Shown piece after piece: positions 996 to 56,663 of a stretch of DNA of 64,000 nucleotides (positions are counted from its first letter, which is position 1; every line of letters begins with the position of its first letter). Below the pieces are notes generated by a model. It saw only the letters and a list, made by a program, of their open reading frames with translations, had not been told where the DNA came from and ran no database searches. A program made the translations under genes and the position numbers. The stretch lies in IMG/VR virus record IMGVR_UViG_3300042562_001169; one strand, given 5' to 3'. The DNA is from a virus (lineage: Duplodnaviria; Heunggongvirae; Uroviricota; Caudoviricetes).

Positions 996-2027
996 ATGAA
1001 GCCACATTTACAAGAATATATAGACGAATTTAATTCCGGAGAATTTGAAGATTTACTTGGATTCTTTGGTAGTATGGAACAAATACTTAAGTTCTTCCAT
1101 AAACAAAATCTATTACAATATATTGACCCTTTTGACGATAATTTAAGTGATTATCAACTAGAGATACTGAATTACTTATTAAACGTCTTAAACGATAAAG
1201 AAACATTAAAATATTGTATAGCTCAATTAGATGATATAGAATTTAAAGATGATGGATGTTATTTAAGAATTACAGATAAAGAAGACTTAGCTGAGTTGTT
1301 TGATAATAATGGAAGAAATTTAACTGCAAGAGATTATGTTAAAGCCATATTTGGTGAAGATAATTGGGAACATTACAGCAATACTACCGATGATGTATAT
1401 AGAGATGTTATTGAAGAGTTGAACCCCGAGAACATAGAACGATTAAAACAACATATGTTAGATGTGTTAACTAATTGGAAAATTGAGGTTGATGATAGTT
1501 CACCTGATTTATTTAACAATTATTCTGAAGAAGGTATTTTTTATTTAACACCGGAGAATGTTGGTGATGTTATTGGTGATGAAGAATCATTTATGTATTT
1601 ACTTGATAATGATTATTTACCTGATGTAACCGGTGACTTATATAGTATTCATTCCAATGCTTATAACAATGCGTATGAAACAGAAATATATAATGACGCT
1701 ATGAGTGAATTAGAAACATTCTTTGATGTGAAATCGGGTAAATGGGAATCAAGACCAACAAGTCATAATCCTGACAAACTTATTGAAACCTATATAATAA
1801 AATTTAATCCAAACGAGGTTGTTAATTCTATTAAGAAATTTGTTGCGGATACTAGTAATTGGGGGTATTATGCGAATAACCTTGATTATGTTACTAGTTG
1901 GTTAAATATGATGAATACTTTTATGGACAATGGTGATGAACCTTGGCTTGACTTTAGAATGCCGGATTACCCGGATAGTGGTTTAGTTGATAAATACATA
2001 AATGAAATATTTCCTGACTACATATAA
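996..2027 (+). CDS. hypothetical protein (~343 aa)
   Basis: The track start at 966 is TTG. The first ATG is at 996, immediately after the upstream stop (992-994), giving a coupled arrangement. Confidence 0.55.
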   Translation: MKPHLQEYIDEFNSGEFEDLLGFFGSMEQILKFFHKQNLLQYIDPFDDNLSDYQLEILNYLLNVLNDKETLKYCIAQLDDIEFKDDGCYLRITDKEDLAELFDNNGRNLTARDYVKAIFGEDNWEHYSNTTDDVYRDVIEELNPENIERLKQHMLDVLTNWKIEVDDSSPDLFNNYSEEGIFYLTPENVGDVIGDEESFMYLLDNDYLPDVTGDLYSIHSNAYNNAYETEIYNDAMSELETFFDVKSGKWESRPTSHNPDKLIETYIIKFNPNEVVNSIKKFVADTSNWGYYANNLDYVTSWLNMMNTFMDNGDEPWLDFRMPDYPDSGLVDKYINEIFPDYI

Positions 2028-2392
2028 TGGAAGATAGAAAAATAGAATCAATTAAAAAAAACATCGTTAAATTGTTTGATGAGGTTATGGTTATAGAAGG
2101 TCAATATGGTATGCCTTATTCTAGTGGTGAGGATTATGCGGATTGGTCTGTTACTTATAAGATTGATAAAATTAGTCTTTGGAACGTCACACGATATAAA
2201 CGTTGTCAATATGGTGGGACCATATATCTTAATCCAATTGAAATTAAGGTTGGGTTTGAAGGTGATTGGGAATATATGAAATACATCACAGATTTACCAA
2301 GTTGGATTGAAGATGAAATTAAAGATTCAATTCTTGATGAGGTTGAAACTTGGTTTCCCAATGTTTGTGCGGATGTTGATTTTTCTTATTAA
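2027..2392 (+). CDS. hypothetical protein (121 aa; C-term ...TWFPNV, family-like)
   Basis: ATG overlaps the upstream stop (ATGG/TAATGG coupling). Confidence 0.5.
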   Translation: MEDRKIESIKKNIVKLFDEVMVIEGQYGMPYSSGEDYADWSVTYKIDKISLWNVTRYKRCQYGGTIYLNPIEIKVGFEGDWEYMKYITDLPSWIEDEIKDSILDEVETWFPNVCADVDFSY

Positions 2393-3045
2393 GTCAAACC
2401 ATTTCCAAATCTATCGAAATATCCAATAACAGCGTTTGAATACATATATGTGCTATCATACATATTTTTATTATTAATTATTTCTGTTATAATGTGCCAA
2501 ACCAAGTCTAATTCTTGTTCTTGAGCACTCTCGTTATAGACAAAGCTTTCAATAAATTCCCCAAGTGCGTCATCATCAATTTCTCCACCGTTAATCATTG
2601 GGTTAGTTAATTCCAACGATAAATAAAAATTAAACATTTCATGGTCTTCGTAACCAATATCCCAATTCAATACGTAACATTCCGAATTAAGTTTTTCTTC
2701 ATCATGTAACTCAATAGATGTAAAATTACTACACTTGTCATTAATTTTCTGTCTTAATTCTTGGTTAATATAAAAGTATCTTATGTTACCTACTCTACAA
2801 TATTTTTCATAAATGTCTTTTCCCCACTCTGGTAAATCTTTGGTTCCGGTCATTACCATAAAGTCGTATAGTGATTCCTCAAGGTGTCCATCAACAACAA
2901 AATTACTGTAAGATATATCGTTAGGGTTTTCTATATCCCATTCAATAGAGTCCTCGTTAAGTTGAGGATATAATAATAATCCATTGATATTAAGGGGCGT
3001 ATCTATGGTTTTAAGAAATAGTCGTAATAATTTATCTTTGTTCAT
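2389..3045 (-). CDS. hypothetical protein (218 aa)
   Basis: Long ORF convergent with the 2027-2392 gene. Confidence 0.5.
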   Translation of the reverse strand: MNKDKLLRLFLKTIDTPLNINGLLLYPQLNEDSIEWDIENPNDISYSNFVVDGHLEESLYDFMVMTGTKDLPEWGKDIYEKYCRVGNIRYFYINQELRQKINDKCSNFTSIELHDEEKLNSECYVLNWDIGYEDHEMFNFYLSLELTNPMINGGEIDDDALGEFIESFVYNESAQEQELDLVWHIITEIINNKNMYDSTYMYSNAVIGYFDRFGNGLT

Positions 3046-4479: not shown

Positions 4480-5565
4480 ATGAGAATTATAATTAAAGAA
4501 AACCAATATTTTAAAATATTAGAGAATACTGATATAGAACCGTCAAAAACAACTATTAAAAACATTTGTGATAGTGAGAAGTTCTGTAAAGCCCAAGGTA
4601 AGATTACCTTTGGTCAGTTACGAGCAATTGTTGAGAGTGCTACAAAACAAAGAATATTTAAACACGTTGGTGAAGGTGGTGTTAAAGCGACAATTAGATT
4701 ATTGCCTTGGTTCTTACCACAACTTATGATTCCTGGTATTGTTGGTGGAGTTATTAGAGCCGTTAACAAAATATTAAAACCAAGTTTAACTGAAACTGAA
4801 AATTATAAAACTTTTTGGGGTAAAGTAATTCTTAAATCATTTCAGGTTGCTGAGGGTGATTTACATTTAAGTGACCCCTTCTCTAAGATATTCTTCATAT
4901 CCGATGGTTTAATGACTATGATGGATGATAAATATAAAATTAGGTTTGCTAGACATATTGCAGAAATTGCTTCAAACAAACCGGATGACGAAGAAGTTCC
5001 TGAGTATTTTGTTGAGAATGAGTTAAGACATTGGGTTAACGATAAGTTTTTATTGGACCCACCATTATCATCAAGGTTAAACGAACAAGAGGAAATTGTG
5101 GATACAACACCCAACTTTAATAAATTAGTTTATCTACCTGAAGAGAAAGCTATGATTGGTGCCTATATGATTACCGGGGATAGTGGGAAGATGATTGATG
5201 TATTAAACATTCACGAACAATTGGATAATGCTGGTTTGTTTATGGATGGTGCGGAATCATACAACATTCATATATTCTTTAGTAAGTTACCAAAATCTCA
5301 AATAGAAATGTTAGGTCCGGTTGAAGGTAAAGAAGGTTTTGAATTTATTAAAATACCTTATTGGTTGTATAAGAAAATGTCTACAGAATTATCTATCAGA
5401 CGATACACAAAATTAAAAAGATTATCGATTGCTCGAAGTCAGGTAAATGATTACTTTCTTAAATTAATTAACAATCCGGATGTTGAGAGGTATTTTAATA
5501 TAGTTGATACGGATGATATTAGTCAACAAAGATTTAAATCATATCAAAGACATTACAAACCTTAA
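4480..5565 (+). CDS. hypothetical protein, 361 aa (N-term MRIIIKENQYFKIL, family-like leader)
   Basis: Long ORF preceded by the tatatttataaat motif 4 nt before the ATG. Confidence 0.55.
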   Translation: MRIIIKENQYFKILENTDIEPSKTTIKNICDSEKFCKAQGKITFGQLRAIVESATKQRIFKHVGEGGVKATIRLLPWFLPQLMIPGIVGGVIRAVNKILKPSLTETENYKTFWGKVILKSFQVAEGDLHLSDPFSKIFFISDGLMTMMDDKYKIRFARHIAEIASNKPDDEEVPEYFVENELRHWVNDKFLLDPPLSSRLNEQEEIVDTTPNFNKLVYLPEEKAMIGAYMITGDSGKMIDVLNIHEQLDNAGLFMDGAESYNIHIFFSKLPKSQIEMLGPVEGKEGFEFIKIPYWLYKKMSTELSIRRYTKLKRLSIARSQVNDYFLKLINNPDVERYFNIVDTDDISQQRFKSYQRHYKP

Positions 5566-6056
5566 ACAATTCTAAAGGTAGTGTCATCAATAGAATCGTC
5601 AGTAGTCTCAGAATTATAAATGTCGGTGTCAATCAAATCTCCATCCCAAACTGAGTAGTCACCCTCTTGATTCATTCCACGAGCGTAGTTAAATATATCA
5701 CCTTTTTCTGAGCTATAAGTTTCAATTTGATGTCTATATGTTTGTTTAACCCACTGAGTTTCCCACAAATACCAATCAAATTCTACTTTTTTAAATGTTG
5801 GTTTATTAAGGTTGTTGGTTAATCTATCTTCTTCAAACAAATCTTCATTCAATTTCCAAACATTATAAATGTAATCACAATCAAGTGAGCTATCGTTACC
5901 TCTAATTCCAAGAGTCGATTCAATAGTTTCAACACCTTCTTGTAATTCATAATCTTGGGATGATTCCAACGTTTCAAAATCAACCTCTTCCATCACCATT
6001 TTAATGAACTTAAATAGGGTTTTGTCGGGTATTGTGTCAAAGATACTTGCGCTCAT
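5562..6056 (-). CDS. hypothetical highly acidic protein (164 aa)
   Basis: D/E-rich composition. Possible DNA-mimic candidate. Confidence 0.5.
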   Translation of the reverse strand: MSASIFDTIPDKTLFKFIKMVMEEVDFETLESSQDYELQEGVETIESTLGIRGNDSSLDCDYIYNVWKLNEDLFEEDRLTNNLNKPTFKKVEFDWYLWETQWVKQTYRHQIETYSSEKGDIFNYARGMNQEGDYSVWDGDLIDTDIYNSETTDDSIDDTTFRIV

Positions 6057-6113
6057 AAAAGTTTTTTATAATAAATATGACGGATTAAAAAAAAATGTCT
6101 ATATTTGCCTCAT

Positions 6114-10602: not shown

Positions 10603-10628
10603 AACCCTCATTATGGAGGGTTTTTTTA
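10603..10628. terminator. bidirectional rho-independent terminator
   Basis: aaaaccctcattatggagggttttttt, sitting between convergent genes. Confidence 0.7.
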
Positions 10629-11213
10629 TATCTTATATTTTGTAAAGTCAGTTGAAGTTGGTTTTTCATTTTTGAAGTAATATACTTCTATCTTCCCATC
10701 ATAGTTAATTGTTTTTCTATATGCTGTTGGAACGGTTGCTCCGGACGGTAACTTAATTGATTTTGGACCGAAGATACATCTGATTTCAACTACAACTACT
10801 TTATGTGTTTTTGATAGTTCTCGTTCTCTTACTTCAAGTAATCTCCACGTTGTTCTGTTAAGGTTCTCTTGTTGTAGAGAACAATTCAGGTAAGTGAATG
10901 TTTTGAATAGAGTTTCTTTATCACAATTAAAGTCGGCCGCGGGAGCTAAATGACCTTTATCGTAAGGGTTTTTTTCGTAATCTTTAGCGTCAGATGTTTT
11001 AATTGAATCACAAACATAAAAGTCCATCCCGGTTCTTGACGCAGTTCCATTTGGACATTGAACGGTGTAACGAATAAATTTAGGTTGTTCCAACTTCTCT
11101 GAATATACAATCTCAAACATTGGTGTTTTAACCACAATACTATCTCTTAATACTTTTTGTGAAAATGATGTGAATGTGATTAGGGTAATTAATACTAATA
11201 AAATGTTTTTCAT
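10626..11213 (-). CDS. secreted DNA/RNA non-specific endonuclease (Serratia NucA family, beta-beta-alpha-Me)
   Basis: Signal peptide MKNILLVLITLITFTSFSQ. Motifs DKGHLAPAADF (compare DRGHQAP) and NCSLQQENLNRTTW (compare NxxPQ...N..W). Confidence 0.65.
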   Translation of the reverse strand: MKNILLVLITLITFTSFSQKVLRDSIVVKTPMFEIVYSEKLEQPKFIRYTVQCPNGTASRTGMDFYVCDSIKTSDAKDYEKNPYDKGHLAPAADFNCDKETLFKTFTYLNCSLQQENLNRTTWRLLEVRERELSKTHKVVVVEIRCIFGPKSIKLPSGATVPTAYRKTINYDGKIEVYYFKNEKPTSTDFTKYKI

Positions 11214-12865: not shown

Positions 12866-13572
12866 GTTTAAGTAAGGATTTAACAATTGTAATCCCCTGC
12901 AAAAATGAGGGATTAATCATAAAGAAAACTTTAGGATTGTTAAACTTGCAAAATAATATTAAAGGTGTAAATGTAATGGTTGCCGATTCTTCAACGGACG
13001 ATGGATTCACACAGAAATGTATTCTTGGTTCATACCATACCAACATCAATGTAAAAATAGTTAAAGGGGGATTTCCGGCTGAAGCCAGAAACAATGGTGT
13101 CAAAAAGATAAAAACTCCTTATGTTTTATTTTTGGATGCCGACATATTCATCAACCAATATTGTTTATTAAATTGTATGGTTGAAGTTATGAAAGAAAAT
13201 GATTATCATTTGTCAACAACTAAAATGAGAACTGACGATGGTGATTACAATTATGTGTACAAATCATTTGATGTTATCCAATACTTAACCAAATTCTCCA
13301 CACCCTTTGCGGTTGGAGGATTTATGTTATTTAATTTAGAGGAATTCAATTCATTGGGAGGATTTAATCCGGATGACAAGTTCGCTGAGGATTATCATTT
13401 AAGTTCAAAAATAAAACCAAATAAGTTTTATGTGGCAAACAAAATTGTTTATACCACATCAAGACGATTCAAGAACAAAGGTTTATTCTATATGGTTAAG
13501 ATGATGATTAAATCTTGGTTTAATAGAAATAATGATGAGTTCTTCACAAAGGAACATAATTACTGGACATAA
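12862..13572 (+). CDS. family-2 glycosyltransferase
   Basis: N-term LTIVIPCKNE, DAD motif (LFLDADIF), and GT-A fold spacing. Confidence 0.6.
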   Translation: MSLSKDLTIVIPCKNEGLIIKKTLGLLNLQNNIKGVNVMVADSSTDDGFTQKCILGSYHTNINVKIVKGGFPAEARNNGVKKIKTPYVLFLDADIFINQYCLLNCMVEVMKENDYHLSTTKMRTDDGDYNYVYKSFDVIQYLTKFSTPFAVGGFMLFNLEEFNSLGGFNPDDKFAEDYHLSSKIKPNKFYVANKIVYTTSRRFKNKGLFYMVKMMIKSWFNRNNDEFFTKEHNYWT

Positions 13573-14291
13573 TGAAATACAAAACAATAATTCTATCAGA
13601 CATTCACTTGGGTTCCAAATCAAGTAGAGCCAACGATGTTATAGAATTTCTTGAAAACAACACCACAGAGACATTAATATTAAATGGGGATATCGTTGAT
13701 GGTTGGGCACTCAAAAGAGGTGGTAAATGGACCGAAAGTCATACCAAAGTATTGAGAAAGATAATGAAGATGAGTGAGAAAGGTGTGAATGTTATTTGGC
13801 TTAGAGGAAATCACGATGAGTTCCTAAAAGATTTCATTCCATTTCATTTATCCAATCTAACAATCACGGAGGATTATACCTTCACATCCATAGATGGTCG
13901 TAAGATGTATGTGTTTCACGGAGATGTATTGGATGTATTCATTACCAAAGCAAAATTTTTAGCTCACATCGGTTCAATAGGTTATGATATAGCATTATGG
14001 ATGAATAGAGTTTACAACAAATATCGTGAGATGAGAGGGTTACCTTATTATTCCATCTCCAAAGATATTAAAAGTGGGGTTAAGAAAGCCGTTAATTTCA
14101 TAAATGATTTTGAACATAACGCAATACTATTGGCTTACAAAAAAGGATGTGATGTTGCCGTATGTGGACACATTCATCAACCGGAGTTAAAAGACAATTA
14201 TATGAATAGCGGGGATTGGTGTGAAAACTGTACCTCATTAGTGGAAACAAAAAAAGGAACGTGGAAAATAATAGAGTTTCACAAAAAATAA
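13572..14291 (+). CDS. calcineurin-like metallophosphoesterase, LpxH-like
   Basis: Motifs ILSDIHLG, LILNGDIVDGW and LRGNHDEF, similar to the UDP-2,3-diacylglucosamine hydrolase pattern D-x-H...GDxxDxW...GNHD. Confidence 0.6.
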   Translation: MKYKTIILSDIHLGSKSSRANDVIEFLENNTTETLILNGDIVDGWALKRGGKWTESHTKVLRKIMKMSEKGVNVIWLRGNHDEFLKDFIPFHLSNLTITEDYTFTSIDGRKMYVFHGDVLDVFITKAKFLAHIGSIGYDIALWMNRVYNKYREMRGLPYYSISKDIKSGVKKAVNFINDFEHNAILLAYKKGCDVAVCGHIHQPELKDNYMNSGDWCENCTSLVETKKGTWKIIEFHKK

Positions 14292-43456: not shown

Positions 43457-43603
43457 TGATACTTATTAGTAAATCATTATTATGTCAAAATCAAAAAAAA
43501 TAGGGAAACCTAAAAAAAACAGAGTAAATGTTGTTAAGAAATTAAAGATAATGAATAAAAACAACGAAATCCTTTCAAGATTAAAATCTGAATTGTAAAA
43601 TTA

Positions 43604-43630
43604 ACCCCATCCTAAACGGTGGGGTTTTTT
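43604..43630. terminator. bidirectional rho-independent terminator
   Basis: aaccccatcctaaacggtggggtttttt, between convergent genes. Confidence 0.7.
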
Positions 43631-44334
43631 AATTTATCTTCCATCATCGAATATACCTTCTCCTTTAATTTTTTGGTGTCCTTAATTGTTAACCCGTCAA
43701 CACTAACCTCATCTAAAAATACAACACGATTTATTCCCGGAGTTAACCCAAACAAACTTGAATGATGAAGACGTTTATCTGTGTCCAACAATAACATTGG
43801 TTTAATAGGTGTTTGAGTTTCAATAGCAATTCTAAATGCTCCGTCAAAGAAATCACATAACGTATCATCCGTATCATTAAACTTACCTTCCGGAAATAAA
43901 AATATTGAAATCCCTTTTGAAATTTCTGATTTTAATTTTCTGATACTCTCAACACGACTACTTGACTCAGTCCGTTTAATTGTTATTACACAGGTTTTCC
44001 AAATGTAACCCAACAAAGGTATTGATGATGTTTCGTGTTGACCCAAAACTCTAAAAGGTTGATTGATACTCAACGCAATTGATGGTGCGTCCATATAGGA
44101 TTTATGGTTTGAGATAAAAACATATTGTTTATTCTTATCGTGAGGTTTGTCGTAAATTATTTTGTGACGAATACCAATTAAGAAGAACCAAGATTTTGCC
44201 CACAGGTTAACCACCCGGTAATTCATATTGGTCCCTTTCATACCAAAAAATGAAAATACAAATATGATTGGTGATATCAATAACATTATTAAGACAAATG
44301 TTATTAACGAATAAATTGTAAATATTTTTTTCAT
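43612..44334 (-). CDS. PlsC-type lysophospholipid (1-acyl-sn-glycerol-3-phosphate) acyltransferase
   Basis: HX4D box (FISNHKSYMDAP), FPEG motif and an N-terminal TM segment. The likely start (MKKIF) abuts the upstream stop. Confidence 0.6.
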   Translation of the reverse strand: MKKIFTIYSLITFVLIMLLISPIIFVFSFFGMKGTNMNYRVVNLWAKSWFFLIGIRHKIIYDKPHDKNKQYVFISNHKSYMDAPSIALSINQPFRVLGQHETSSIPLLGYIWKTCVITIKRTESSSRVESIRKLKSEISKGISIFLFPEGKFNDTDDTLCDFFDGAFRIAIETQTPIKPMLLLDTDKRLHHSSLFGLTPGINRVVFLDEVSVDGLTIKDTKKLKEKVYSMMEDKLKNPTV

Positions 44335-44335
44335 A

Positions 44336-45769
44336 TCAAATTTGTTTTCCATATTCAATAACGGTTTCAGTTTTTTCTTCTTGACGGTGACCGCCAACAT
44401 AAGTTCCACATACTTTATTACCATTATCAATCACGTCCTCAATTTGAGTCTCCCATCTAATATATAGAAGACTTGTTGATGGGTCGGTATAATTTCCTGA
44501 CATAGTTTTTTTTACACCGTTTTTAATCACACCATTAATTCTTCCTTTGTGGTGATATACATCTTCATAGGTTTCTTTAACACCTTCACTAATAACGTCC
44601 TTTATTAAATCTGTTGGGACATCCCAATCACATTCAATGGTGTCCGTAATACCTTTGTTAATAATCTTATCAATTATGTTTTCACCAACATATTGACGTG
44701 GGGTGGAACTTCTCACACCATCTCTAACGACAAGATGTGATTCTAAAATAAGTTCTCTACCGCTAGTATCTAAAATCAGAAGAGCATTCTTTTTTTGTTT
44801 TGTTTCTTTTACACCATTTTTAAGTGCGTCTTCCATTTTATTATCAAAAAATTTCATCACATCAACGTGACTAGTTTCTTTAACACCAATATCAATCACT
44901 TTATAAGCATCAACCCTAAGTTTTGACATATGATATTTAGTTTCCTTCACACCCTTATCAATTACTTCTTCACATAAAAATTGGAATTTATCTCCCGATT
45001 TGGTTTCTTTCACACCTTCTTTAATGACACCATTAATCCAACTTTGATTTTCGTACTCACTATATTGAGTGTCTCTCACACCATTTTGAATAACATCTTT
45101 AACGTCACCTCTAAATCCTTTATACTCGTAAATTTCTTTCACCCCATTTTGAATGATGTCGTTAATATCTCCAAGTTTTTTATCTGAACTTCCGTTATCG
45201 GTATCTTTAACAAGGAATGGTCGATGGAAATGGAGGGGGTCAGTTTTCTTCACACCATTTTCAAGAGTACCCTCAACTGATAAGGTTCTTTTATCGCCCC
45301 AATAATCGGTGTTCTTCACCCCATTTTGAATGATATCGTCAACCCCAAGAAGAGTACGTCGTAATGTGCTATTAGTTTCTTTCACCCCATTCTCAATGGT
45401 ATCGTCAACGGACCAACACGTTTTCATATGAGCCATCTTAGTTTTATTTACACCATTTTCAAGAGTATCTTCAAATTGTTGTTTTCTATCCCGGGCATCT
45501 CTAAAGAGTGTAACATAAGTTAACTCTTTATTTATAATATTGTCTTCCACCCATTTTGTGATGAGGTGTTGATTCTGAACGCAATCCAACGAAGCGTAAG
45601 CAAAAACACTTTTAAAAAAGTTGTAATTATACCACAGAGTTTTATTCTCAGTTAATTCAATCACCCATTGTTTAGTCTCAGTAAAGATTAACCAAGTGGA
45701 ATCATTGTGGGTGTAGGTATCCACACCTTCGGTAAATTCGTTGATTAGTTTATGTATAATTTTTTCCAT
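44336..45769 (-). CDS. 477-aa protein with about 15 degenerate repeats of the motif [IV]-x-N-G-V-K-[EK]-T
   Basis: Repeats read directly (ENGVNKT, IENGVKET, IQNGVKNT, LENGVKKT, IQNGVKEI, IQNGVRDT, IKEGVKET, IDKGVKET, IDIGVKET, LKNGVKET ...). Coupled to the acyltransferase. Confidence 0.6.
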   Translation of the reverse strand: MEKIIHKLINEFTEGVDTYTHNDSTWLIFTETKQWVIELTENKTLWYNYNFFKSVFAYASLDCVQNQHLITKWVEDNIINKELTYVTLFRDARDRKQQFEDTLENGVNKTKMAHMKTCWSVDDTIENGVKETNSTLRRTLLGVDDIIQNGVKNTDYWGDKRTLSVEGTLENGVKKTDPLHFHRPFLVKDTDNGSSDKKLGDINDIIQNGVKEIYEYKGFRGDVKDVIQNGVRDTQYSEYENQSWINGVIKEGVKETKSGDKFQFLCEEVIDKGVKETKYHMSKLRVDAYKVIDIGVKETSHVDVMKFFDNKMEDALKNGVKETKQKKNALLILDTSGRELILESHLVVRDGVRSSTPRQYVGENIIDKIINKGITDTIECDWDVPTDLIKDVISEGVKETYEDVYHHKGRINGVIKNGVKKTMSGNYTDPSTSLLYIRWETQIEDVIDNGNKVCGTYVGGHRQEEKTETVIEYGKQI

Positions 45770-45825
45770 ACAACAAAGATACTAAAACTATTTCTTATTA
45801 TCTAATAATAATTTATATTTTTACA

Positions 45826-46122
45826 ATGAAGAAGTTGATTATTATCAGAAAAGTGTTTAAGGAATTATATCCTGAGTTAAAGGTGCTTGTCCGGTATAAC
45901 CAAAAAAAGTATTTTGAAATCATTCTCAAAAATGTTAAAGGGTCTTATGTAGACGACACTTCATTTAAATATATGCTCACCATCCCGGGTTCTGAAAATA
46001 TTGTAATTGAAGATTTTGTTAATTCTTTATTTGGGTATTGTTCCATTCTCAATGAGGATAATTGTATAATAAAGTATTTGGATAAAAAAGGTTCCCGAAC
46101 AATCACTAAAATATTACAATAG
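45826..46122 (+). CDS. hypothetical protein
   Basis: ORF. Confidence 0.45.
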   Translation: MKKLIIIRKVFKELYPELKVLVRYNQKKYFEIILKNVKGSYVDDTSFKYMLTIPGSENIVIEDFVNSLFGYCSILNEDNCIIKYLDKKGSRTITKILQ

Positions 46123-46384: not shown

Positions 46385-46879
46385 ATGAAATTTATTATTT
46401 GTTTATTGTTTTGTTTGGTTGGGTATTCACAGATTCCCAATAACATTATTATCGGAGATTCCCAAACTCCATACGTTGATAGAAACTCAAAAAAAGTAGA
46501 GAGGGTGGTTGGACTATGGAAAGGTGGGATTGCTGTCCCATACCTTACAAAAATGGTTCAGAGATATAAAGTTTCACCCAATGTCCAAAATGTTTTTTTG
46601 TGTATTGGAACCAACGACTTATATGTGGATAAAGGAATTGATAAATTATTTAAGTCAATACGGATTACATTTCCAAATACCAAGATTTATGTTATTCAGG
46701 GTTCTTGGGGTTGGGGTGGTGTTACTCACACCAAGTATGATAAGATTAAAAAATATTATAAACGATATCAAGAATTGGGTGGAACAATAATTGGACCACC
46801 AATTGGTAAAGGTGACCCCCATTGTGATTGTCCTGTATATAAAGAAATCGGAAAAGTTATTGATAATATCTTGTTGTGA
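46385..46879 (+). CDS. secreted SGNH/GDSL-family hydrolase (lipase/esterase)
   Basis: Signal peptide. Block I GDSQT and block III IGTNDL. Confidence 0.6.
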   Translation: MKFIICLLFCLVGYSQIPNNIIIGDSQTPYVDRNSKKVERVVGLWKGGIAVPYLTKMVQRYKVSPNVQNVFLCIGTNDLYVDKGIDKLFKSIRITFPNTKIYVIQGSWGWGGVTHTKYDKIKKYYKRYQELGGTIIGPPIGKGDPHCDCPVYKEIGKVIDNILL

Positions 46880-49267: not shown

Positions 49268-50002
49268 TTATCGTTTTAAGATTTCTTTAGAGTAAAATTC
49301 ATCAAACCCAACCATCATTTCTGTCATAGATTTGTTTGTCTCTAATCCAACGATGTTATCAATTAAACCAAACTTTTTCGCCTCATCTGAGTTGAACCAT
49401 TTGTCATTTCTTGATGACTCATACATCTCGTCAAATGTTTTCCCACAATTCTCCGCCAAGATTTTGAATAACATATAGTTATACTTCTCCGCCTCCAATT
49501 GGTTGATACGAGTGTCCTGAACATTTCCTTGTGTTCCGTGAGATACCATATGTGTCATAATTTTTGAGAAGATTAATGAACTTCTTTTTCCTTTGGCTCC
49601 TGACGATACTAATACGGAACCCATAGACGCACACATCCCAACATTTAATGTTGCAACATCCGGTTTGATGTAGTTCATAGTATCTCGGATTCCAAGACCT
49701 GACAATACGGAACCTCCCGGAGTGTCAAGATACATACTGATATCTTTTTTATCTGTGGTTTCCAAGAAGATAAGTTGAGCTTGTATGATAGATGCCATCT
49801 GACTCTCAACCGGTCCGGAAACCCAAATAATTCTGTCCATCATAAGTCGGGAGAAAATATCAAGTTGAGTTGCTCTCATCTCTCTTTCTTCCAAAATGTA
49901 TGGAGTAACACTCTCGATGTGTTTTTGGTAGTAATCCAAATTAAGTCCTGAAATACCTCTGTCGCTCATCGCGAACTTTTGAAACTCTTTTCCGTAATTC
50001 AT
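49268..50002 (-). CDS. clpP: ATP-dependent Clp protease proteolytic subunit ClpP
   Basis: Canonical blocks: LDTPGGSV, catalytic Ser in GMCASMGS and catalytic His in MTHMVSHG. Full-length match to bacterial ClpP. Confidence 0.85.
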   Translation of the reverse strand: MNYGKEFQKFAMSDRGISGLNLDYYQKHIESVTPYILEEREMRATQLDIFSRLMMDRIIWVSGPVESQMASIIQAQLIFLETTDKKDISMYLDTPGGSVLSGLGIRDTMNYIKPDVATLNVGMCASMGSVLVSSGAKGKRSSLIFSKIMTHMVSHGTQGNVQDTRINQLEAEKYNYMLFKILAENCGKTFDEMYESSRNDKWFNSDEAKKFGLIDNIVGLETNKSMTEMMVGFDEFYSKEILKR

Positions 50003-55391: not shown

Positions 55392-56663
55392 ATGAATAAA
55401 TTAGACAAAACATATCAGGACTTACTCCAAGACATTCTTGACAACGGAGTAGTAAAACAAGACAGAACAGGGACGGGAACAATCTCGGTATTCGGAAGAC
55501 AAATCAGACATAAAATGTCAGAAGGATTCCCATTACTTACAACCAAAAAAATGCCATTCAAAACAATCGTAACAGAACTTCTTTGGTTCTTAAGAGGTGA
55601 TACCAACATTAAGTTTTTGGTTGATAATGGATGTAATATTTGGAATGGTGATGCTTATAAGAACTACATAAATAACCCAGCTTACAAAGCTGAATCTGTT
55701 GCCGATTTAATGGGTTCACAAGCAGGTCAATTGGTAAAATGCTCAACACAAGAAGAGTTCATCAACAAAATAAAGACAGATGATGAGTTTGCTAAGAAGT
55801 GGGGTGAATTGGGTCCAATTTACGGTAAGCAATGGAGAAATTGGGGGAGGTTTGAGTATGAAGGTTTCACCCAAGAAGGTAGCGAAACATTAAATAACAT
55901 AGATGTAAATTGGAAAATACCAACAGACCAAATCCAAAACCTAATCAACGACCTTAAAACAAATCCAGACTCAAGACGATTGATGGTTAATGCTTGGAAT
56001 GTTGGAGAACTGGACCAAATGGTTCTTCCACCTTGTCATTATGGATTTCAAGTTTATACAAGAGAGTTGAGTAATGAAGAACGATTAGATTGGATGAGAG
56101 GTAATAAGTCTAAAGTAATCTTACCAATGAGAGACCCTAATATTGAGTTTTCTATGGATGAATGGTTTAGACCATACGGAGTTCCTAAACGAGCAATCTC
56201 TTTAATGTGGAATCAACGTTCAGTAGATACATTCTTAGGATTACCATTCAACATTGCTTCTTATGGATTGTTATTAGAAATAATTGCAAAAGAAGTTAAT
56301 ATGGTTCCTGACCAGTTGATTGGGAATCTTGGTGATGTTCATTTATATTCAAATCATATTGAACAAGCCAAAGAACAAATTGGAAGAGAATATACTCACC
56401 AAGAAAGAGATGAATTGTTACAACAAGAGATGGGTAGAGAAAGATATAATAAGGCGGTTGATGAATTGATGCCGTTCGGTGGGGGATTAAGTGGATATTA
56501 TGAATTTTATAAAATTCCATATAGAACAAGAGAACCTTATCGATTACCAACATTAGTAATGGTTACTAACCCCGATTTAAAGTTTGATGAATATGTTTAT
56601 GATAATTTAAAACTTGTAAACTATCAATCACATCCAACCATTAAAGCACCTTTAAGTAATTAA
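55392..56663 (+). CDS. thyA: thymidylate synthase ThyA, long form with small-domain insert and extra C-terminal insertion (423 aa)
   Basis: DRTGTGT, PLLTTKK, LPPCHYGFQVY (catalytic Cys), DTFLGLPFNIASY, GDVHLYSNH. Insert ...DEFAKKWGELGPIYGKQWR as in the L. casei/B. subtilis ThyA type. Confidence 0.9.
   Translation: MNKLDKTYQDLLQDILDNGVVKQDRTGTGTISVFGRQIRHKMSEGFPLLTTKKMPFKTIVTELLWFLRGDTNIKFLVDNGCNIWNGDAYKNYINNPAYKAESVADLMGSQAGQLVKCSTQEEFINKIKTDDEFAKKWGELGPIYGKQWRNWGRFEYEGFTQEGSETLNNIDVNWKIPTDQIQNLINDLKTNPDSRRLMVNAWNVGELDQMVLPPCHYGFQVYTRELSNEERLDWMRGNKSKVILPMRDPNIEFSMDEWFRPYGVPKRAISLMWNQRSVDTFLGLPFNIASYGLLLEIIAKEVNMVPDQLIGNLGDVHLYSNHIEQAKEQIGREYTHQERDELLQQEMGRERYNKAVDELMPFGGGLSGYYEFYKIPYRTREPYRLPTLVMVTNPDLKFDEYVYDNLKLVNYQSHPTIKAPLSN

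Follow-up and report, generated by a model that had tools for sequence, protein, structure and literature searches.

The window analysed here, a 64,000-nucleotide (nt) stretch of the IMG/VR virus record IMGVR_UViG_3300042562_001169 (Duplodnaviria; Heunggongvirae; Uroviricota; Caudoviricetes), carries on its minus strand two closely adjoining genes. The upstream gene encodes a 477-amino-acid (aa) protein built around a tandemly repeated NGVKET-like motif, and the downstream gene encodes an acyltransferase of the PlsC family. The preliminary description of this locus regarded the two as a translationally coupled pair within a programme of envelope remodelling by the phage. Comparison with related loci argues for neighbours brought together by an insertion history, and not for partners. 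The features of the locus are collected in Table 1.

Table 1. Features of the repeat gene and PlsC locus, in positions of the window
Feature	Coordinates	Strand	Basis or remark
Cassette-repeat protein gene, 477 aa	44336..45769	-	Open reading frame (ORF) list; stop TGA at 44336-44338
Conserved N-terminal domain, residues 1-95	45485..45769	-	Homologue conservation, AlphaFold2
Array, 14-16 units of about 22 residues	44450..45484	-	Core [VI][ED][DE][VTI][IL]xNGVK[EH]T + ~10 unit-specific residues
Conserved C-terminal tail (NGNKVCGTYVGGHRQEEKTETVIEYG...)	44336..44449	-	Cut short in the window by the PlsC insertion: KQI* vs ancestral TKNPT[VD]*
PlsC / lysophospholipid acyltransferase-family gene, 240 aa from ATG 44334	43612..44334	-	PF01553; stop TAG 43612-43614
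PlsC N-terminal hydrophobic membrane-anchor segment, about residues 5-30	44245..44322	-	Kyte-Doolittle
Catalytic HX4D motif HKSYMD, residues 77-82	44089..44106	-	Alignments; H and D invariant in phage/host alignment
FPEG motif, residues 147-150	43885..43896	-	Followed by K in phage copies aligned, T in host copies aligned
Junction TGA-T-ATG (repeat-gene stop, 1 nt, PlsC start)	44332..44338	-	Identical in L006
TATCTTTG, Bacteroidota-type TAnnTTTG promoter-like box	45774..45781	-	Ends 4 nt upstream of repeat-gene ATG
Terminator-like hairpin AACCCCATCCTAAACGGTGGGGTT, A and T runs either side	43603..43626	.	Overlaps PlsC stop
Conserved 38-aa basic ORF, convergent, synteny marker (MSKSKKIGKPKKNRVNVVKKLK...)	43482..43598	+	
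Conserved 98-aa ORF, divergent from repeat gene, synteny marker	45826..46122	+	ORF list, synteny

The repeat protein contains 14-16 copies of the motif [IVL]xNGVKET with a period of 21-24 residues, in agreement with the approximately 15 copies counted previously. A relaxed pattern identifies 14 copies between residues 103 and 447, while the strict pattern G[VI][KR][EKDNS][TI] occurs 11 times against an expectation of 0.05 (maximum 2 in 20,000 shuffles). The motif spacing stays within 21-24 residues, except in two degenerate stretches of 37 and 77 residues. The repeat is also visible at the DNA level, where copies lie 63 or 66 nt apart with 62-89% identity. Tandem Repeats Finder reports no repeat in the gene, because the spacers between the cores are unrelated to one another.

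Across 120 homologues, the repeat unit is composed of a 12-residue conserved core, with the family consensus VEDTIQNGVK[H/E]T, and about 10 variable residues; the earlier figure of 12-25 variable residues between motifs was roughly right. The spacing of units is exactly 22 residues in 602 of about 1,170 unit pairs. The hydrophobic positions -7, -4, -3 and +1 of the unit are conserved and an aromatic residue is often found near +9, while the E of VKET is conserved at only 63%. Among 60 full-length homologues, N-terminal residues 1-80 are highly conserved with many invariant W, F, Y and L residues, the C-terminal ~30 residues are conserved as well, and the middle part varies in length. The number of units ranges from 5 to 24 and follows the length of the protein (r = 0.92), which spans 280-780 aa in the family. 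The repeat protein has ~31% charged residues and a grand average of hydropathy (GRAVY) of -0.67. A hidden Markov model (HMM) search of all ORFs in the window finds no paralogue of the N-terminal domain, and a kinship of this domain with the small 'MKIIITE...' proteins of the window was rejected on the same search.

More than 1,478 homologues of the repeat protein exist, all of them unnamed. A profile search of 1.84 billion representatives returns 585 clusters at 50% identity, every one with the same architecture; the apparent matches without the N-terminal domain are all truncated fragments, and an occurrence of the repeat in other architectures was rejected. Judged by its sequence, the repeat protein belongs to no described repeat class (LRR, PbH1, TPR, YD, choline-binding repeats and others in Pfam), and the preliminary description did not recognise one either; it has no Pfam family at E <= 1 and no NCBIfam, PHROG or PDB sequence match. 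Pfam searches with 60 homologues give scattered sub-threshold noise only (DUF4316, Dodecin, BACOVA_N), and the best of these matches, DUF4316 at 6e-4, covers 14 residues in the one member inspected. GenBank phages contain no match to the repeat protein by blastn or tblastn. In bacterial genomes there is one partial match, which lies terminally on a contig of 10.5 kb assigned to a Pseudarcicella metagenome-assembled genome and does no more than hint at Bacteroidota. In the literature, no relevant paper holds the motif strings, the lone match being an unrelated soil-EPS paper.

The 879 units compared fall into 129 types, of which 40 account for 84% of the units. Each type is present about once per protein, and the relative order of the types is 87% consistent. 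Within a type, the spacer identity is 0.86, a value somewhat inflated by the clustering cut-off, compared with 0.82 for the N-terminal domain in the same protein pairs; the variable parts are thus conserved like the N-terminal domain and are not drift. More widely shared units lie nearer the C-terminus of the array. Between the window and L006, the flanks are ~97% identical and the N-terminal domains 99%, and the arrays differ by insertions, deletions and replacements of whole units. The units are therefore distinct, individually conserved types that are gained, lost or replaced whole between near-identical phages, and recombination of one conserved 36-nt core with another is the most likely cause. 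In the assembly collection, 108 blocks list a protein identical to that of the window; the members of the 90% cluster to which it belongs measure 404-479 aa, in addition to one 258-aa fragment. In the distant relative L026, 24 consecutive units of VEDTIQNGVKHT plus 10 residues form an array more regular than that of the window. As a separate observation, L039 carries two divergently oriented paralogues of the repeat protein (1936-2997 (-) and 5001-6080 (+)), as does L050, and these paralogue pairs have one nearly identical unit in common (GV[RK]HTSSGPYLSSEDVE).

Structure prediction distinguishes the N-terminal domain from the array. In the full-length AlphaFold2 model, calculated with a 60-sequence alignment, the N-terminal domain forms a helix, four strands and then helices, its residues 11-50 reaching a predicted local distance difference test (pLDDT) score of 70-83, and the array scores 26-45. 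A model of a six-unit segment, based on 43 in-register homologue fragments, has a pLDDT of 40 and contains no strands, only short helices over the last spacer residues and VEDxIxN. The core is predicted as a short amphipathic helix with an N-G cap, followed by an extended VKxT. Foldseek finds no structural neighbour in PDB and BFVD at E <= 0.001. The two AlphaFold2 runs give no confident fold for the array and do not support the beta-solenoid that the preliminary description had raised as a question.

The downstream gene encodes a PlsC/LPLAT-family acyltransferase, an assignment made earlier from the HX4D and FPEG motifs and the N-terminal hydrophobic segment and now confirmed. PF01553 matches with E = 6.9e-19 and 68.4 bits (cut-off 23), and the hydrophobic N-terminus has a 19-residue Kyte-Doolittle maximum of 2.76 over residues 1-35. 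The protein aligns to T. maritima PlsC (5KYM) at 5.5e-8, with HX4D and FPEG in register and HKSYMD of the phage protein opposite NHQSLMD of 5KYM. FRVLG and TPIKP (at 175) are present too, and all four motifs are conserved relative to the host proteins. With HX4D and FPEG intact, an activity on membrane lipids is plausible. The residue behind FPEG is different in the two groups: 4 of 4 phage copies aligned read FPEGK, whereas 5 of 5 Bacteroidota host copies aligned read FPEGT (FPEGTF), and this T-to-K change beside the substrate-binding motif might alter the specificity of the enzyme. The equivalog models match below their cut-offs, TIGR00530 at 2.4e-19 with 69.4 bits (cut-off 102.95) and PRK15018 at 46 (cut-off 501), and lyso-ornithine-lipid acyltransferase models match weakly.

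Phage PlsC proteins form a clade of 85-98% identity, separated by a gap from PlsC of Chitinophagaceae at 52-55%. One bacterial homologue is situated among cytochrome-c maturation and PriA genes, which is an ordinary chromosome context. Compared with bacterial PlsC, a 1-acyl-sn-glycerol-3-phosphate acyltransferase, the phage protein has the same domain, motifs and N-terminal hydrophobic anchor and the length of Chitinophagaceae PlsC; it differs in being phage-encoded, in FPEGK, in its position below the equivalog cut-offs and, in the window lineage, in a C-terminus replaced by the tail of the repeat gene (KNPTV). Among 50,697 GenBank phage records, the PlsC matches are 8 unannotated faecal contigs with 21-30% identity, and text searches of the literature found no paper on phage plsC; lipid acyltransferases of the PlsC type seem to be rare in phages.

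The acyltransferase ORF as listed extends over 43612..44430 (-), and the remaining phage copies of PlsC start at the position corresponding to the ATG at 44334; a further in-frame ATG at 44352 is made by the conserved E-Y-G codons of the repeat gene. The junction reads ...GGA AAA CAA ATT TGA T ATG AAA AAA, with the stop at 44338-44336, a single T at 44335 and the ATG at 44334-44332, exactly the 1-nt distance noted before. In relatives that lack PlsC, the terminator-like hairpin overlaps the stop of the repeat gene instead, and the repeat protein ends in ...EYGTKNPT[VD]* within the hairpin AAAAAACCCCACCG.T.A..TGGGGTT. In the window and L006, the repeat protein ends in ...EYGKQI*, and PlsC follows after 1 nt and itself ends in ...KLKNPTV* in that hairpin. 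Read from these sequence comparisons, what was ancestrally the 3' end of the repeat gene now contains PlsC, which has acquired that gene's last codons (KNPTV*) and terminator hairpin. The 1-nt junction is thus a scar of insertion or inversion and not evidence of a common function.

The other arrangements of the two genes agree with this history. PlsC adjoins the repeat gene in only one (L006) of the 65 related loci first examined. L066 and L067 carry the exact window protein, with PlsC co-oriented behind the repeat gene. In L069 and L070, by comparison, a PlsC of 86% identity is convergent to an intact repeat gene at the shared hairpin, still has a C-terminus of host type (KYGSPPS) and is preceded by a hairpin and a TATCTTTG box of its own. 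The simplest history is that a Bacteroidota plsC was captured once, at the terminator, and that in the lineage of the window it was afterwards inverted into the repeat gene's 3' end. Phage morons and auxiliary metabolic genes come from the host, lie beside a terminator and draw on the promoter of an adjacent gene; PlsC resembles them as a host-derived gene that is found in part of the lineage, was inserted at a terminator hairpin and shares the resident promoter and terminator. The setting itself is conserved, as synteny in the 65 loci follows the order SGNH-like gene, orf98, repeat gene (on the opposite strand), orf38, orf130 and DUF5872. The repeat gene opposes the direction of its neighbours in the window and in closer relatives, and runs with them in the more distant relatives examined. 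The 38-aa basic ORF is 77-100% identical across relatives whose other genes are far more diverged, and it invariably runs towards the repeat-gene terminator in convergent orientation.

The expression signals bear on the translational coupling proposed in the preliminary description. TAnnTTTG is the -7 promoter motif of Bacteroidota, and in all 5 loci compared a box of this kind stands upstream of the repeat gene at one fixed distance; as no more than 4 nt separate its end from the ATG, the mRNA would be leaderless or almost so. For the TAnnTTTG boxes of the window, 14 of the 24 occurrences less than 100 nt from a start lie 10-29 nt upstream of the ATG. Between the repeat gene and the window PlsC there is neither a separate promoter-like box nor intergenic space, and the TGA-T-ATG spacing suits termination-reinitiation. 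Adjacency and co-orientation are not conserved across relatives; co-transcription and termination-reinitiation are likely, as a consequence of the insertion history.

Taken as a whole, we consider the two genes to be neighbours by insertion history and not partners, the repeat protein being a modular display or adaptor protein and PlsC a captured auxiliary gene, with a probability of roughly 0.6. The repeat gene is, on good support, an autonomous, conserved and fast-rearranging gene under its own TAnnTTTG promoter-like box. Its product would be non-enzymatic and anchored by the N-terminal domain, with the cores serving as a common scaffold or a common binding element and the unit-specific decapeptides as a diversity-bearing contact surface in a phage-host or phage-phage interaction. 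PlsC is an auxiliary gene of Bacteroidota (Chitinophagaceae-like) origin, confined to one subclade. At first it faced the repeat gene convergently across the terminator that both shared, under a promoter of its own, and in the window lineage it was later inverted into the repeat gene's 3' end. The window copy now uses the promoter and terminator of the repeat gene, and it is probably translated by termination-reinitiation across TGA-T-ATG. In infected cells, its most likely reaction would be the acylation, in the inner membrane of the host, of a lysophospholipid, either 1-acyl-glycerol-3-phosphate or a lyso-lipid related to it.

Several points weigh against this interpretation. The display or adaptor role is a best guess drawn from architecture alone, with no homology tie to any function. 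A flexible adaptor would account less well than a rigid, possibly oligomeric, fibre or solenoid for the strict 22-residue period and for the conservation of hydrophobic positions, and monomer AlphaFold2 could miss such a rigid structure. The cores of L026 and L047 show a conservation that includes synonymous sites, with G/C-ending codons in AT-rich genomes (31% GC for L026), a pattern that hints at concerted evolution or at a constraint acting on DNA or RNA and that the proposed model leaves unexplained. With respect to PlsC, the TIGR00530 and PRK15018 scores below their equivalog cut-offs and the FPEGK of the phage copies, as against FPEGT of the host copies, weigh on any assignment of the substrate. 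Finally, PlsC stays at the 3' end of the repeat gene in both arrangements, which leaves a small probability of a weak functional link.

A structural fibre or solenoid is the alternative that survives best, although we regard it as unlikely. The array would fold, probably only as an oligomer, into an elongated repeat structure in which the 12-residue cores form the spine and the 10-residue inserts form surface loops tuning the binding to a host or surface, while the N-terminal domain docks on the virion and the C-terminal tail acts as a cap or oligomerisation element. In T-even tail-fibre adhesins, conserved motifs delimit hypervariable segments. The exact 22-residue period, kept even in distant relatives and through the 24 consecutive units of L026, the regular hydrophobic and aromatic positions, and the conservation of both terminal domains while units vary from 5 to 24 all suit such a structure, as does the minority orientation that the repeat gene shares with the ClpP-like 'head maturation protease' (PHROG). 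The low pLDDT and the absence of strands in both AlphaFold2 runs count against it, with the qualification that monomer predictions frequently fail on obligate oligomeric fibres. Further against it, the high charge and low GRAVY are unlike beta-structured fibres, the promoter-like box is of host type, and PHROG, Pfam and Foldseek give no link to a tail or head protein. The neighbours in annotated loci are small ORFs of unknown function or nucleotide-metabolism genes, with the exception of a small tail-collar-domain ORF about 1 kb upstream in L001.

A bolder proposal, judged distinctly unlikely, is that the array represents a genetically encoded combinatorial peptide library. The cores would be landmarks for recombination and processing, the cassettes (more than 100 types) would be the active elements, released or displayed one per unit, and strains would reshuffle their sets as an arms-race device. 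If true, this would be the first diversity system described in phage that resembles ribosomally synthesized and post-translationally modified peptides (RiPPs) or variable lymphocyte receptors (VLRs). Recombination between conserved motifs is known from the glycine-rich motifs of the T-even gp38 adhesin, from transcription activator-like effector (TALE) repeats and from the LRR cassettes of lamprey VLRs. In these systems, as in the phage array, invariant short elements alternate with diverse segments and whole units are exchanged, and the cores are homogenised at the DNA level in some members. However, there is no sequence or predicted structural similarity to them, the phage unit has 22 residues of which 10 are variable, and no fold is predicted.

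A peptide-library precursor is very unlikely. Here, the N-terminal domain would be a leader, the 12-mers would mark where the chain is recognised or processed, and each 10-residue cassette would be set free as a separate, possibly modified peptide. The cyanobactin precursor PatE and other multi-core RiPP precursors consist of a leader and repeated flank and cassette units, and the phage protein resembles them in its leader-like start, its conserved flanks around hypervariable cassettes of constant length and, in some members, the conservation of the flanks in the DNA. In favour of it, the cassettes keep one length between the invariant flanks, and every cassette type is preserved from phage to phage; in L026 and L047, the near-identity of the flanks extends to synonymous sites, next to cassettes that are saturated. 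In addition, the array is predicted to be unstructured, and the gene of a ClpP-family protease is found at a distance of 3.5 kb, with the orientation of the repeat gene. On the other side, a Pfam check of the neighbours in L001, L003, L005, L006, L066 and the window reveals no YcaO, radical SAM, subtilisin-like protease or cyclase in any of these loci, and the E of VKET at 63% makes a poor protease P1 site. With 280-780 aa and a folded N-terminal domain, the phage-encoded repeat protein is also far larger than known precursors and has no processing or modification enzymes nearby; to our knowledge, a peptide-library precursor is without precedent in phages. A display or adaptor protein, an oligomeric fibre or solenoid and a processed precursor are not separable in this analysis.

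The reading of the preliminary description, in which the coupled repeat protein and PlsC act together with a secreted GDSL hydrolase, a GT2 and an LpxH-like enzyme in envelope remodelling, for example to block superinfection, is highly improbable. The 1-nt junction, the position of PlsC at the 3' end of the repeat gene in both known arrangements, the intact motifs of PlsC and the syntenic SGNH-like gene had spoken for it. Comparative data largely refute a functional pair, since most members of the repeat family lack PlsC, the PlsC of L069 and L070 is convergent and independently promoted, and the junction is an insertion scar. The genes named as a lipid-remodelling set are likewise not supported as parts of one programme. 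The ORF at 46385-46879, described as a secreted GDSL hydrolase, does contain GDS at residue 24 and GTND at residue 75, but its last block is DPH instead of DxxH, Lipase_GDSL_2 matches with E = 0.081 and 13.9 bits only (cut-off 32.9), and no PDB relative was found; the gene is syntenic with the repeat gene whether PlsC is present or not. The ORF resembling LpxH, a UDP-2,3-diacylglucosamine diphosphatase, (13572-14291) retains a full-length resemblance to NF003743 and a Metallophos match (1.5e-14), but its 49.3 bits fall below the cut-off of 134, and this gene and the adjoining GT2 are 30 kb from the repeat gene.

The DNA geometry of the array, a 36-nt core and a 30-nt unique spacer, recalls a CRISPR array, most of all in L026, where 24 units have a core DNA identity of 86% and a spacer identity of 0.28, the random level; moreover, the widely shared units cluster at one end of the array. 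Near-perfect arrays of 36-nt cores (~85% pairwise DNA identity, up to 24 units) occur at L026:4968-6866 and L047:4977-5840. The window cores, however, are only 66% identical in DNA. Frame 0 is open over 477-632 codons, while the other two frames hold 23-81 stops (23 and 56 in the window). In the window cores, the codon-position entropies are 0.72/0.37/1.23 bits, compared with 1.76/1.65/1.81 in the spacers, and this concentration of variation at third codon positions argues for selection on the cores at the protein level. The array continues the reading frame of the two conserved terminal domains, and the spacers have a hydrophilic amino-acid composition unlike a random AT-rich translation. Rfam gives no CRISPR-DR match, and 361 unique 30-nt spacers searched against 719 kb of related loci match, outside their own array, only second paralogous arrays and sequences at chance level. 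A CRISPR-like or other non-coding repeat-spacer array misread as an ORF is hardly credible on this evidence, and a CRISPR array was ruled out for the window by the coding evidence and the lack of an Rfam match.

Tandem repeats inside protein-coding genes that resemble repeat-spacer arrays have been described as false CRISPRs (Zhang & Ye 2017, PMC5294841). The phage array is likewise a coding tandem repeat with repeat-spacer geometry (36 + 30 nt) and could be miscalled in relatives of the L026 type. It differs in that false CRISPRs were defined there as lacking diverse spacers, whereas the spacers of the phage array show full diversity and thereby raise the chance of a miscall; coding arrays of the L026 and L047 type would probably be taken for CRISPR by automated finders.

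The window has a GC content of about 31% and contains no tRNAs. It encodes, among others, a thymidylate synthase, an SPFH protein, a GT2, a metallophosphoesterase, a ClpP-family protease, an SLT transglycosylase and a non-specific endonuclease. The IMG/VR and metagenome contigs that carry its homologues of the repeat gene measure up to 214-332 kb and have T4_Y16D, ClpP and DUF5872 genes among the neighbours, and a same-length member of the window protein's 90% cluster lies on a 272-kb contig. These contig sizes point to a large uncultivated phage. Phages with the repeat gene probably infect freshwater Bacteroidota. Three observations point to a Bacteroidota host: the nearest cellular PlsC is from Chitinophagaceae, the TAnnTTTG boxes are concentrated upstream of starts, and the partial bacterial match is binned to Pseudarcicella. 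The 'moraphage' paper on aquatic Bacteroidota jumbo phages (PMC12619734) mentions none of these genes, and a link to this lineage is not established.

Several other features were observed in the window and its relatives. The ClpP-family serine protease gene (49268-50002 (-)) matches Pfam at 3.3e-52 and the PHROG 'head maturation protease' at 1e-30; its distance from the repeat gene is the 3.5 kb given above, in the same minority orientation, and L001 and L003 are alike. Seventeen otherwise dissimilar ORFs of the window, one of them a DUF5872 protein, start with the tag M[KR][IVL][IV]ITE[SNDR][KQR]... (ORF starts at 476, 20150, 21268, 21950, 22276, 28482(-), 28784(-), 36311, 36651, 37013, 37332, 40057, 41186, 41751, 42320, 46893 and 47797), and the same N-terminal tag is found in relatives at L058, L061 and L039. 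In form, it recalls the capsid-targeting sequence shared by T4 internal proteins with its (I/L)xE protease site. The thymidylate synthase of the window (55392-56663 (+)) has 423 aa and a Pfam match in two stretches, compared with 350-363 aa in relatives, and in L047 (9111-10810) the gene is apparently split into a 218-aa N-terminal part, an intervening ORF and a later fragment; this suggests an insertion or intron-like element, for which T4 td is the comparison case. The DNA/RNA non-specific endonuclease (10626-11213 (-)) matches PF01223 at 3.6e-19, and its homologue at L061:5949-6542 opens with a typical Bacteroidota signal peptide (MKKFLLSLFFIFPLLLLSQ).

The locus thus adds an undescribed phage repeat family with cassette units and a CRISPR-mimicking geometry, and a rare phage-borne PlsC whose insertion history is resolved. 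With regard to genome annotation, the locus illustrates that a stop and a start 1 nt apart can be the scar of an insertion and no sign of co-function, and miscalls due to the CRISPR-mimicking geometry could enter catalogues of phage CRISPRs and mislead the prediction of hosts from spacers. With a PlsC that comes from Bacteroidota, the auxiliary metabolic genes of phages extend to phospholipid synthesis, and the gene points to the host group. Meanwhile, the repeat proteins form a widespread phage family without annotation, in which invariant 12-mers frame swapped decapeptides, and this makes the family a likely player in phage-host conflict.

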